Positions 1 through 59,100 of a stretch of DNA of 64,000 bases are shown here, one piece after another. Every line of letters begins with the position of its first letter. Within the stretch, counting starts at the first letter, position 1. The stretch is from Octopus vulgaris. Lineage: Eukaryota. The position numbers were made by a program, and so were the translations under genes. The stretch is from positions 6,572,001-6,636,000 of the forward strand of contig OX597818.1 in the NCBI GenBank assembly GCA_951406725.2, written 5' to 3'. The notes under the pieces were generated by a model. The model was not told where the DNA came from. It worked only from the letters and a program-made list of their open reading frames with translations, and made no database searches.

Positions 1-665
1 TAAGGACCTTTCAGATCTGGTGTAGTGATTTTCTTCTGCTCTTTCTGACAAATTGACCTTTCCTCGTCATATACGACTTATATCTGATGTCCTCGTCAAC
101 AACATTTCTGAGTGTTCCTTCTAACACATGGAGATCTTTTGCAATTGACCTCATGGACTTTCTAGGAATGTAATCAATGGTCACTTGAACTTGTTAGCTA
201 AATTCAGACGTTCTGATTATTTCAGAGCGTTTAGAATGCTTCTTATGCTTTGATACTGGTGATACGTTTCCATATTCAGTCACTAACTCCTTACAAACTT
301 TGTAGATGAAAGATCTGGCAAATTTTAAAAATCGAGATATTCATATCTTGAATAAGCTGATGTTCTCGGATAGCTTACGCACTCTCTCTCTCTCTCTCTC
401 TCTCTCTCTATATATATATATATATATATATATATATATATATATATATATATATATGTATATATATATATTTAATCAATATATTCATAATTAATCAATA
501 TATTGATTAATTATGAATTTTCTGTTTAATTCCGTAATGGAATCGGCAGCTTATATTTGCTGCCGATAAATTTGGCGCGAGTGCGATGATTTGAAAATTT
601 TAGGTCAGATATTGCCGAGACAGTAGTGGAACTGCCTCGTGAAAATATCTGCCCCGATCTGGCTG

Positions 666-768
666 ACTTTACTGATGAATCTACTGGCCTATGGAAGATT
701 AGCTTGATTTAATTTAATCAGGTTGATTTACCATTAAAGATTAGACGAAACGATGCATCGTATAAAGT
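666..768 (+). ncRNA. Type I hammerhead ribozyme motif
   Basis: ACTTTA-CTGATGA-aTCTA...TAGAc-GAAA-CGATGCATCG-TA-TAAAGT; stem I ACTTTA/TAAAGT; palindromic stem III; GUA site; A-C mismatch at the base of stem II. Confidence 0.8.
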
Positions 769-1162
769 ATTACAGGGTAAATGTTTTTTAAATTTTCTCC
801 TGGTTTACGGAATTAATATTGTTTTGCGGTTGAAGCCTTGGCTGTTATTTCTAGTGGGTTGAATGGCCTATTATGGCCGTTCCTTAATTTTGCTGTTGAA
901 TTTATAAATGGTCTATGACTATTTACTTTTTTCCCACTAGGCCGCTGGTGGCAAAAAAATTCTCCGAAATTTTTTGCCACCCTATATTGATTAATTATAT
1001 TGATTAATTATGAATTTTCTGTTTAATTCCGTAATGGAATCAGCAGCTTATATTTGCTGCCGATAAATTTGGCGCGAGTGCGATGATTTGAAAATTTTAG
1101 GTCAGATATTGCCGAGACAGTAGTGGAACTGCCTCGTAAAAATATCTGCCCCGATCTGGTTG

Positions 1163-1265
1163 ACTTTACTGATGAATCTACTGGCCTATGGAAGATTAGC
1201 TTGATTTAATTTAATCAGGTTGATTTACCATTAACGATTAGACGAAACGATGCATCGTATAAAGT
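1163..1265 (+). ncRNA. Type I hammerhead ribozyme motif (second tandem copy)
   Basis: Same motif as 666-768, offset 497 bp. Confidence 0.8.
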
Positions 1266-1520
1266 ATTACAGGGTAAATGTTTTTTAAATTTTCTCCTGG
1301 TTTACGGAATTAATATTGTTTTGCGGTTGAAGCCTTGGCTGTTATTTCTAGTGGGTTGAATAGCCTATTATGGCCGTTCCTTAATTTTGCTGTTGTATAT
1401 ATATATATATACATATATATATATATATATATATATATATATATATATATATATATATATATATATATATATATATATATATATATACGTAGAAGTTTGA
1501 AAAGATACAAACGAGTTGAT

Positions 1521-55707: not shown

Positions 55708-55752
55708 ACCGGACCGCGGTTTCGAGATTATTGTCTCTTATCAACGGGCGGT
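55708..55752 (-). ncRNA. Type I HHR, U3-A8 core variant
   Basis: Reverse complement of 56061-56105. Confidence 0.8.
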
Positions 55753-56060
55753 AACCACCAGGTCACGATGGAAGGTAAGGCTTGCTTTGCAAATATATAA
55801 GAGTTTTTCTAGTGACGTCTGCCACTGATTTCGAAAAACTGACTGTAAGCATTATTAAATCTCAGAGCGAAATGTATACAGTAACCGCTCAACAACGTAA
55901 AGTGTAACAGCCATCTCAATATGGCTAACCACAAAGTGGGGGTGTTACTGTAGCTTTTAGCCCCAGGAGATCGACGTCTCCAGCTGGCTTTAGACACACT
56001 TTCTGTGCCCTTTAGGTATTAGCAAAGGGAAGCCTTGCCTTCCATCGTGACCTGGTGGTC

Positions 56061-56105
56061 ACCGCTCGTTGATAAGAGACAATAATCTCGAAACCGCGGT
56101 CCGGT
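56061..56105 (+). ncRNA. Type I HHR, U3-A8 core variant
   Basis: CG-TTGATAA-GAGA caataa TCTC-GAAA-CCGCG-GTC-CG; palindromic ACCGCGGT; GUC site. Confidence 0.8.
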
Positions 56106-59100
56106 GCGTATCACTAAGGCTTACGAGGAAGGGGTGGCTTCCCTTTGCAAATACCTAAAGGGCACAGAAAGTGTGTCTAAAGCCAGCTGGAGACGTCGAT
56201 CTCCTGGGGCTAAAAGCTACAGTAACACCCCCACTTTGTGGTTAGCCATATTGAGATGGCTGTTACACTTTATATATATATATATATATATATATATATA
56301 TATATATATATATATATATTATATATCTGAAGAGGCATGCACAAGGAAATACCAAAGAATGCGGTAATACCCATGAAGAGTATGTACTCTGCCTCACATC
56401 TTTTAGACAGACATCATCATCATCATCCTCTTCATCATCATCATCATCATCAGTGAAATTCTTTATAGGTGACGATATTATGAATATCTGTTTGAATATG
56501 ACAACAACCCTGTTCCTATGTAAAACTGAATGTAGTAACAGTCTACATCTTTGGTTATGTTTACGAGTACAATTAACAGCAGATATCTTCTCTGAGTGCC
56601 AATTCTTTATCCCCAATCATTTCTGTCATCTAAAATAGTGTAGGCGAGCTTTCTATAACATCATCTTTCGTTGGCTTTTTTCCTAACTGCTGTAGCTCCT
56701 CACAATAGAAGCATAAAATATAGACTTATGGAAACCCAATTACTTCACGTTTTATTTTTATAAATCTTTTAAACTATTCATCATTTTCCACTTGCACAAT
56801 ATCTTAAGGGACTTTGTTTTAGACATTCTATAGCGTAAAACGCCTTGAAGGCGCGAAAACATTTTGGTTGTACACTTTTCTATTTACCATTCATCCGACA
56901 GAGTCAGGGCTATATTATCTACTGTATCCATAACGTTAAAATTTTTCCTGTCGTTTGTCATAGTAAAGTTATCCTCCAAGCTTCTTTCCATTTATGAGTT
57001 GTTTCATATTTCTCCCAAACCAAATTTATTTAAGGTATTTATTTAAGGTATAACACACATAATGGCATGTGTAATTTTGTAAGATGGGGCAAGCCGTTAT
57101 CCTCTGATTAGTGCATCATAAATATTTTAAACCTAATTCACGAAATCAGATTATATACCTTACACAAGAAATTCAACAACAAATCGCATGTCTCTTATGG
57201 AATTATCTAGGTTGACTGGTTGCAATGTGATGATCATGTCACTTCGATTGTCTCAGTTGGTATAATTTGTGCATTTTGATAAATATGTCTAATCTAATAA
57301 TCTAATTTTATCAATATTCGTTACATCCTTCATTACCTATGTTCTCGTATCAATGTATGTATGTATGTATGTATGTATGTATGTATGTATGTATGTATGT
57401 ATGTATGTATGTATGTATTATGCATCTATCTATCTATCTATCTATCTATCTATCTATCTATCTATCTATCTATCTATCTATCTACCTATCTATTTATCTA
57501 TCCATTTAGTATGGAATTGGTTGCCTTTACCTTTGTTGTGGTGCTTGTAATCTTAGTAGTTTGCCCGTTTCTATGTATTCTTATCTAAGTCAGTTTGTTT
57601 CTTTGTCTTGCTTCTTTGTTTTTTGTTTTTGTTTTAGGTGATGTAATGTTTTTAATTTTCTTGCCCTTCACAAGTATCTGTTCTGATGTTCCTTTCAAAC
57701 TAATTTCTTTACAATGCGAAATTGTGCAGATGAAGAATATCTGTGACAAAGAGGACTAGGTATGTGAGCGCAAATGCGTATATCTGAGTTAATGTGTTTA
57801 GTCAGATTGACTTCTAGCGGTACGATCTCCTACGTTATTATTGTATTGGTGATGCATTTCTCCTGGGTTGTTGAGTTGGTGTCTGCGGCTGGTGACTTTC
57901 AGTGCATTTTCGTTGTTGATAGATTTGCTGCTGCTGCTACTGTTGCTACTACTGTTGCTCTTCGTCCTACTACTCCTTTTATTGATGCTGATGCTGGGGT
58001 AAAGGCGTTGGCAGGCAGATGTGTTCTTCCAACACCTTTCATTTACAGTTGACAGAATGCTCTTGGCTAGTTTGAGTCCCCAAATATATAGCACATCGGT
58101 ATCCAATGCTTTGGAAAGTCCTAAGCGATTTGGAAGGTTGAACAAGACAGGGAAGGCTTCTAACCTACGATGGTCTGTTTTCTAACAAGAAAGCATATTA
58201 TTAGTCCGGAAAGTTCATGCTGTATGACCAATTCTCCTTGCCCGGCCCGTGGTCCCACCATTTTTCTTTTTGTCTGTGGTATATAACATGACCGCCATTA
58301 GCAATGAGGTTGTTCTTTAGTTTGCCAACTTTCTGACAGTTATATTGGATTTATATATTCAGCGCCCTTTAGTGTTCCTGTTGAATAATCTCACCTCAAC
58401 TGTGACAAAAGCTCTTCTCTTCCTAGAGCAATACAGACTTTTATGTCCCATATTGGTTTAAGACACATTCGGTCTGAGTTCGTTGAAGGCGGCTCAAGGT
58501 CAAAGCATAAGCCACCTGCAAAATATAAACCAATACTAGCGGAACTGGCTTTTTATCAGCGATAAAATAATCTTTTACCTCTGATGGACAATGTGAATGA
58601 ACATAGGGGAAGTGATGGTCCAACCGTTGAAGCAGCAAGGACATTTTAGTCAGATATATTCGCAGTAATACGGTTAAGCATTACAAAGAAGCAGACGGTT
58701 GACTGACAATTTAATTTGAGATGAAAAGCAAGGGAATGCAAATATAACAGATCTAAGACAGACAAAAATATATTTTAAGAAATAAAGCTAATTGGAAAGC
58801 ATTTATATATATGAATATATACATACATATATACATATATACATGCATATATACATACTTACGTGTGCGTGTGTATGTATGCATGTGTGTATGTATATCT
58901 GTATTATGTATGCATGCATGTGCATATGTATACGTCTTTGATAGCATATTAGCTGGAGAAAATGATCAGAAAAACATTAGTAGACATCAATTGCAACAAA
59001 TATATTATTTAGATATTTGAATGTTCTAACTTCGTTAGTCTAATAATAAAACTAACGAGTCCTAGAATAGGCATATGATCACAAAATTTATAGATGGACA

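Follow-up and report, generated by a model that had tools for sequence, protein, structure and literature searches.

Introduction

The components of the system considered here are already in print: hammerhead ribozymes of Penelope-like elements (PLEs), retrozymes, targeting of TA repeats by the Hydra clade of PLEs, and initiation of reverse transcription at two sites. PLEs of the Hydra clade have a C-terminal endonuclease (EN+), carry canonical hammerheads, and insert into (TA)n (Craig et al. 2021, PMC8557442, section 11), and a cephalopod member, Hydra-1_Obim, is given in the supplement of that study. The metazoan retrozymes without long terminal repeats (non-LTR) are protein-less tandem units of low GC content, strongly self-paired, with one type I hammerhead each; in mussels, the units span 350-390 bp (Cervera and de la Pena 2020, PMC7229834). 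The Poseidon-clade PLE PAc was found in vitro to start reverse transcription at two RNA-internal sites and to cut both DNA strands (Frangieh et al. 2024, PMC11167929). Here, we analyzed a stretch of 64 kb of the Octopus vulgaris genome (GCA_951406725.2, contig OX597818.1, positions 6,572,001 to 6,636,000 of the forward strand), hereafter the window, from a genome of 2.8 Gb in 227 contigs. We give a probability of about 70% to the reading that the window, which has 34% GC and is rich in microsatellites, is a pile-up at (TA)n of hammerhead-bearing PLE insertions, made of truncated ends of Hydra-type and Neptune-like elements and of retrozymes likely copied by Hydra-type enzymes.

This overall model is that of the PLE-derived retrozymes (Li, Clavereau, Pollet 2026, 10.64898/2026.07.22.740005). 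That work is mostly on vertebrates, it found sequence homology to the pseudo-LTR (pLTR), and the text available from it names no insertion footprint, whereas in the octopus window it is the footprint and the build of the ribozyme that make the link, with no homology of sequence. The window adds coding and non-coding members side by side, pointing to the Hydra clade, and a corrected density. Our searches of the literature, which did not extend to subscription papers, returned no paper dealing with retrozymes in cephalopods or with the A6U core. Cores with U4C and A6C are mentioned in the accessible part of PMC3088659, and a cephalopod repeat annotation (PMC13282606) reports active Penelope-like families in a main text that, as available, has neither "ribozyme" nor "Hydra".

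Results

Hammerhead motifs in the window and in the genome

We searched the window with a canonical type I descriptor, i.e., CUGANGA, GAAA, stem III, UH, and a stem I of at least 4 bp, with a long stem II permitted. It gave 8 matches, against a mean of 0.03 (maximum 1) in 30 block-wise dinucleotide shuffles. Among 22 candidates chosen on core and palindrome, without demanding stem I, 7 had a stem I of at least 4 bp when 1.2 were expected (maximum 4 in 500 permutations). The window motifs have the core CUGANGA/GAAA/UH and stems I to III in the order that makes a type I hammerhead. An initial annotation of the window had proposed about 20 such motifs with paired stems. The motifs are real, and their state is mixed: of the 21 sites listed, 10 are intact and 8 are decayed or core-variant in the window copy, the check at family level having covered all sites but 21683, 45490, and 45840. 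The intact copies are those at 666, 1163, 5838, 6319, 12845, 13980, 25491, and 51253, by the canonical descriptor, together with 55708 and 56061, which have a U3:A8 core and a bulged stem I. In the decayed or variant ones (1577, 1728, 20963, 25864, 1943, 36793, 45121, and 47594), the family keeps the core, GAAA, and the palindrome. Among the best 150 of 294 Rfam rows, there was one hammerhead match, HH9, with 34.3 bits and below the gathering threshold, the other rows being microsatellite noise. A descriptor with a stem II of at most 40 nt and a closing pair missed most motifs and was set aside.

The genome was sampled as 52 stretches of 10 kb (520 kb) taken at round coordinates on contigs C1-C30. 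A strict descriptor identified 8 motifs in the sample and 7 in the window, with none in 4 shuffles, and a looser one 13 in the sample and 0-4 in the shuffles. By homology to a library of motifs, we found 52 sites in the sample, 22 in the window, and none in shuffles. Since this library is complete for the window and incomplete for the genome, the density in the sample is a lower bound. The genome has about one hammerhead-derived site per 10 kb and about one intact motif per 40-65 kb, i.e., by extrapolation roughly 43,000-70,000 intact motifs (from the 8-13 in 520 kb) and 280,000 derived sites. Hence, the window is a hot spot, and the genome-wide figure of one hammerhead per 3 kb suggested initially is about three times too high for all sites and far more so for the intact ones. 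The proposed adjacency to (TA)n is confirmed. A run of at least four TA lies within the 300 nt downstream of 38 of the 53 hammerhead-derived sites in the sample, and of 24% of random positions, and the terminal junctions of arrays abut (TA)n in 11/11, 18/18, and 25/25 of the distinct junctions printed for three families. Overall, the population is real, large, under-annotated, and made of known kinds of elements.

Protein-less tandem monomers

Tandem monomers and inverted PLE-type arrangements in many unrelated families, as first described, were found throughout. The suggestion of a dozen non-autonomous families is correct for F1, F4, F7, and F13, which are protein-less. F1 (471-1395, + strand) is a tandem monomer of 497 nt in the window, with two units between (TA)n runs. 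Its intact hammerheads, at 672 and 1169, have a stem II insert of 68 nt, a palindromic stem III of 10 nt, and a GUA site; the genome has 1,937 first-look candidates, with monomers of about 485-497 nt. F4 (5372-6639, + strand) is a young monomer of 481 nt, present as 2.6 identical units with a fixed 3' end on (TA)n and with intact hammerheads at 5845 and 6326. Its 1,619 first-look candidates include arrays of up to 13 units, and full units are 96-100% identical. The other two are two-armed insertions. F7 (25352-26150) has a monomer of about 460 nt, with a hammerhead that is intact at 25544 (-) and damaged in stem I at 25870 (+). F13 (55497-56270) has a tandem monomer of 355 nt, with U3:A8-core hammerheads at 55744 (-) and 56069 (+) and 3,133 first-look candidates. 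All four are dispersed on many contigs, with 1,600-3,400 first-look candidates each and fixed ends. We found no PLE frame in register upstream of the copies in their loci, and no in-register upstream coding sequence in any of the 22 analyzed F4 loci. The circular folds of F1, F4, F13, and a sister family of F4 have z-scores of -5 to -7, and a Hydra untranslated region (UTR) used as control has -0.5.

By their sequence, F1, F4, F7, and F13 fit the definition of non-LTR retrozymes (PMC7229834). They differ from the published metazoan ones in having units that reach about 500 nt, flanks that are strictly (TA)n, the two-arm footprint of PLEs, a longer palindromic stem III, and an often long stem II. 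No public dataset holding the monomer sequences is on record as RNA. Self-closing F4 contigs were obtained in four runs presumed to be RNA; a circle and a tandem array give the same contig, and we therefore did not use them as evidence. The sister family of F4 (L349-L378) has a monomer of 480 nt, 71% identical to F4, and 481 exact motif matches genome-wide. It forms arrays of about 30 units, and its stem II is shorter, with a GNRA-type loop. A repeat resembling short interspersed nuclear elements, at 26518-26858, 37277-37623, and 9923-10235, has 93 matches in the 520 kb, and its TA-rich part is the target of F4 in at least one locus.

Coding Penelope-like elements and their ends

The remaining families for which coding status was settled are not non-autonomous: judged by the order of domains in the open reading frame (ORF), motifs, (TA)n insertion, and pLTR or tandem-inverted structure, F5, F6, and F12 are PLEs of the Hydra clade, and F9 is a Neptune-like PLE. 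The cassettes of F5, F6, and F12, first described as short and non-coding, are the ends of coding elements of 4-5 kb, which corrects that description for at least three sites.

F5 (12809-14215) derives from the 3' UTR/pLTR of a young coding Hydra PLE as a 5'-truncated copy in two arms, with intact hammerheads at 12926 (-) and 13986 (+). Longer copies reach into a frame of at least 875 aa, and full copies have a 1,071-aa frame that begins 55 nt past the end of the pLTR. It is a single ORF encoding a reverse transcriptase (RT) and then, C-terminally, an endonuclease (EN) of the GIY-YIG type, with RWR, DKT, and YRDD, a linker CNCRIKSKC (CxCx5C), CQLC (CxxC) and CIH (CxH) in the EN, and no CCHH. 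An intact frame, with a long Asn-rich insert, lies at L299:3672-6884 (-). This 1,071-aa sequence has no Pfam domain and no sequence match in PDB, which, with the lack of a gathering-level hammerhead in Rfam reported above, bears out the expectation of under-annotation; its neighbors in the Atlas are RT-like eukaryotic clusters. The C-terminal EN and the hammerheads set it apart from the Naiad PLEs, whose EN is N-terminal and which lack a canonical hammerhead.

The second Hydra family, F6 (20810-21580, - strand), is a truncated 3' UTR with a 75-nt stem II insert and a core that is mutated here. The third, F12 (48900-51310), is a two-armed truncated 3' UTR with an intact hammerhead at 51259 (+). 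Copies of both run into remnants of a Hydra-type RT and EN, and the Hydra EN motifs are present in F12 and partly in F6. The UTR of F12 is a degenerate TA/TG microsatellite: what appears to be 2.4 kb of simple repeat is a young Hydra 3' UTR (L339, L344) with pure (TA)n runs, and the element may therefore spread its own target sites. A query with the Hydra RT gave 9,888 first-look candidates. Among the 150 that were scored, 14 have stop-free frames of at least 900 aa, and the candidates form at least three young groups, with about 98, 88, and 68% identity.

These elements resemble the published Hydra clade (PMC8557442) in RW[KR], DKT, the CxCx5C linker, the absence of CCHH, CxxC/CxH in the EN, the 3' hammerhead, and insertion into (TA)n. 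They differ from it, as far as its text describes the clade, in an ORF of 3.2 kb with an Asn-rich insert and UTRs of 1.2-2.4 kb, where published elements are generally below 3 kb, in tails of 70-120 nt instead of 30-40, in the many young intact copies, and in the microsatellite UTR of one family.

F9 (43265-45246, + strand) is a 5'-truncated element with a YIDD RT and, C-terminally, GIY-YIG with CxxC. Its linker is degenerate, and the label Neptune-like comes from the motifs: of the YIDD RT, the Cys linker, and the CCHH-bearing EN that mark the Neptune clade, YIDD and the CxxC inside GIY-YIG were seen. The hammerhead of its pLTR, at 45121, is minimal, with a CG stem III and an extra A. The core CUGUNGA (45121-45155) is found in nearly all of 23 aligned copies, with A6 changed to U and position 7 varying freely; it is a natural variant that is tolerated, or else a motif that is dead yet conserved. 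The family is abundant, with 11 matches in the 520 kb.

Insertion footprint

In every family with enough copies, the cut site is followed downstream, at set distances, by the (TA)n end. From cut site to TA, F1 ends at 129-142 and 227-240 nt (20 and 20 of 65 anchors, most of the others being upstream units), F4 at 130-142 and 261-271 nt (12 and 19 of 84 anchors), and F7 at 146-152 and 219-248 nt (4 and 22 of 30). The Hydra elements behave likewise, with ends at 34-38 and 153-159 nt for F5 (8 and 30 of 38) and at 11-24 and 89-97 nt for F12 (9 and 13 of 23). Monomers and Hydra elements share two ends 40-135 nt apart, the shorter one usually on the inverted arm, whereas the Neptune-like family has a single end mode at 90-103 nt (13/23).

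The two arms of a locus are closer to each other than to other loci in 11/11 (F4), 14/14 (F1), and 8/8 (F5) two-armed loci. In all 33 of them, private variants are common to both arms, and we therefore take both complementary DNAs (cDNAs) to come from one source. Units of F4 differ by 0.25% within an arm and by 1.11% between loci, and a set of variants private to one locus can recur in 11-12 units. The initiation by PAc at two sites (PMC11167929) gives the two-end footprint a known cause. The likeness covers two fixed internal starts, the cutting and extension of both strands, and an AT-rich target; PAc differs in belonging to the Poseidon clade, and its sites are 30-40 nt apart, while here they are 40-135 nt apart and occur also on protein-less RNAs.

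Ribozyme build

We catalogued the motifs in 1.7 Mb of fetched DNA and obtained 32 clusters, with cores CUGANGA (21), U3:A8 (7), and CCGANGA (4), and cut triplets GUA (17), GUU (6), GUC (5), AUA (3), and CUA (1). Minimal ribozymes had been expected; in fact, most motifs have a full palindromic stem III, and the stem II inserts are of 10-131 nt. The hammerheads share with those described in PLEs (Cervera and de la Pena 2014, PMC4209133) their thousands per genome in many families, dimers through palindromes, U3-A8 covariation, inverted pairs 100-700 bp apart, and, in the Neptune-like family, an extra base after A9. They differ from that account in being mostly not minimal and in the family-wide cores CUGUNGA (A6U) and CCGANGA (U4C). 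In Naiads, "half cores" 35-50 nt apart are described (PMC8557442), which may be, at a guess, long-stem-II motifs like the ones found here.

Covariation of the stems among copies, which had been named as a check on the motifs, is seen in 6 homologous Hydra hammerheads, where 7 of 15 pairs changed on both sides (a score reached by 0 of 500 shuffles), with compensatory changes in all three stems, in a set that is small, hand-picked, and mutually related. Another small set, F4 and its sister family, also shows a compensatory change in stem I. All four motifs that we folded misfold as monomers, and unconstrained co-folding of two copies gives a double-hammerhead dimer 4-11 kcal/mol below two monomers, in agreement with the dimer model of PMC4209133. 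We predict cleavage in the dimeric state only, via the palindromic stem III, which would free unit-length RNA from multimers.

Other families and repeats

The remaining hammerhead families are mostly old or damaged. F2 (1488-1813) is a two-armed inverted insertion whose family has a U3:A8 core, both window copies being damaged in stem I. F3 (1884-2214, + strand; listed site 1943) belongs to an old family with 71-79% identity; its core at 1946 is followed about 125 nt later by GAAA and the palindrome, the copy is decayed, and stem I has only 2-3 bp in the family. For F2 and F3, no upstream homology was seen past about 390 nt. F6b (21581-22132) is a separate two-armed element with an intact core at 21758 (-) and a stem I cut by the inversion junction. 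F8 (36518-37133, + strand) is an old element whose hammerhead (36781-36886, + strand) is the part best conserved among copies; the motif proposed at 36793 is decayed in the window copy. F10 (45350-45920, - strand), a decayed tandem pair about 350 nt apart, has a core of the CCGAUGA type and a weak relationship to F13 (72% over 57 nt). F11 (47518-47691, + strand) is short and two-armed, with GACA in the window copy and an intact GAAA and a GUU site in the family. RT matches beside copies of F2, F6, and F7 (L163, L134, L120, L316) were judged, by orientation or by an intervening TA run, to be separate insertions into the same TA tract.

A decayed Hydra-type RT and EN (52600-54083, + strand) adjoins an inverted repeat (53831-54083) with a UUGAGAA core and GAAA, which is probably its pLTR ribozyme. 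A Hydra-type GIY-YIG remnant (4337-5021, + strand), missing from the initial list of sites, precedes a hammerhead-like core (at 4831) and a stretch of (TA)n. A dispersed repeat at 42019-42277 and 42931-43194, with 5 matches in the 520 kb, has GAAA upstream of CUGAUGA, the order of type II or III hammerheads; its stems are not evident. There are also broken remnants of RT typical of long interspersed nuclear elements at 15809-17955, 27848-28360, and 63300-64000 (with RVT_1 matches in the first two), and of Mos1/mariner-like transposases at 22651-23388 and 38231-38881 (with an HTH_48 match in the first).

Discussion

The monomers and the Hydra elements have the same insertion footprint and build their ribozymes alike, with a palindromic stem III and often a long stem II, and on these grounds we infer that Hydra enzymes mobilize the monomers. 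By analogy with PAc, a Hydra RT/GIY-YIG protein would cut a (TA)n tract on both strands and prime reverse transcription at two positions inside the RNA, downstream of the ribozyme. The two cDNAs would extend 5'-ward for variable lengths and then join, which would produce arms placed back to back. With a monomer RNA as template, the enzyme may go round a circle or follow a multimer and leave arrays of near-identical units. The homogeneity of the arrays fits rolling-circle copying, and homogeneous master arrays would give the same. PLE proteins with RT and GIY-YIG had been put forward as the mobilizers from the start, and PLE enzymes are indeed likely. The protein at 52765, of the right clade (Hydra-type RT and EN), is a decayed, dead copy, and the one at 43270 makes a poor partner given its different ribozyme build and single end.

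Several points weigh against this reading, besides the narrowness of the covariation set. The comparison of 3' tails with full-length PLEs, proposed as a check, gave no support: in 20 Hydra RT loci (of the 9,888 candidates), there is no match to F1, F4, F7, or F13 in register with a Hydra frame, and a comparison of 31 tails brought out no 7-8-mer common to them. The F4-like variant found in public contigs is another tandem monomer (480 nt, 71% identical) and not a coding parent. A single circular template does not account for those arrays that are internally mixed (L261, L262, L267), and the arm test was uninformative for F12 (2/5). The coding status is settled for 8 families, a set that leaves out F2, F3, F8, F11, and F6b. 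In published assays, PAc inserted in vitro without need of its hammerhead (PMC11167929), and no cleavage was seen for 8 of 9 dimers of Xenopus retrozymes (10.64898/2026.07.22.740005).

The alternative that fares best concerns only the template and is compatible with mobilization by Hydra enzymes: the templates might be linear multimeric transcripts of master arrays, with the ribozymes as passengers. The existence of mixed arrays, the position of the monomer ends 130-270 nt from the cut site, and the unaffected insertion of PAc with hammerhead mutants (PMC11167929) all speak for it. We consider it unlikely, if a serious contender, given the L259 array, where 12 full units have common locus-private variants, the conservation of core and pairing across diverged families, and the circles shown for the retrozymes of coral, mussel, and axolotl (PMC7229834). 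It is less probable still that the monomers are mobilized by Neptune-like or other PLE enzymes, such as those of the 43270 family, or by any PLE enzyme without preference of clade. The Neptune-like family is abundant, as its matches in the sample attest, and it ends on (TA)n, but it has a minimal ribozyme and one end mode, while the monomers share the build and the two-end footprint of Hydra.

A further possibility is that all cassettes are 5'-truncated ends of coding PLEs and that tandem arrays arose later by local, satellite-like amplification of DNA. The first part is true of F5, F6, F12, and F9, local amplification has been proposed elsewhere (10.64898/2026.07.22.740005), and unequal crossover is likewise expected to give homogeneous arrays. 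Yet the F4 arrays are spread over many contigs, where their 3' end on (TA)n is fixed and their 5' ends vary, their inverted arms carry the same private variants, the 22 F4 loci analyzed lack in-register upstream coding sequence, and the monomers are strongly self-paired when the Hydra UTR is not, all of which makes this explanation improbable as a general one. Finally, chance matches in AT-rich and repeat-rich DNA, which short cores and the imperfection of 11 of the 21 listed copies might suggest, have a negligible probability and are refuted for the 18 sites checked by the shuffle, permutation, and family tests.

Returning to Hydra-type enzymes copying retrozymes into (TA)n, we advance, with less than even odds, a broader picture. 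In it, an ecosystem of dozens of families of long-stem-II, dimer-acting hammerheads, missed by standard models, would mark some 280,000 sites. Starting from both cut strands of (TA)n, enzymes of the Hydra clade would reverse-transcribe circular protein-less RNAs in rolling-circle fashion, recognizing structure and not a shared sequence, and some Hydra UTRs would seed further (TA)n targets.

In this genome, young intact Hydra frames stand beside retrozyme families with 99% identity and mapped ends, and the question of which enzyme writes retrozymes of animals into DNA, and from which template, could thus be put to the existing in vitro PLE assay. Our analysis suggests that the genome of the octopus has tens of thousands of intact hammerheads missed by Rfam and by descriptors with a short stem.

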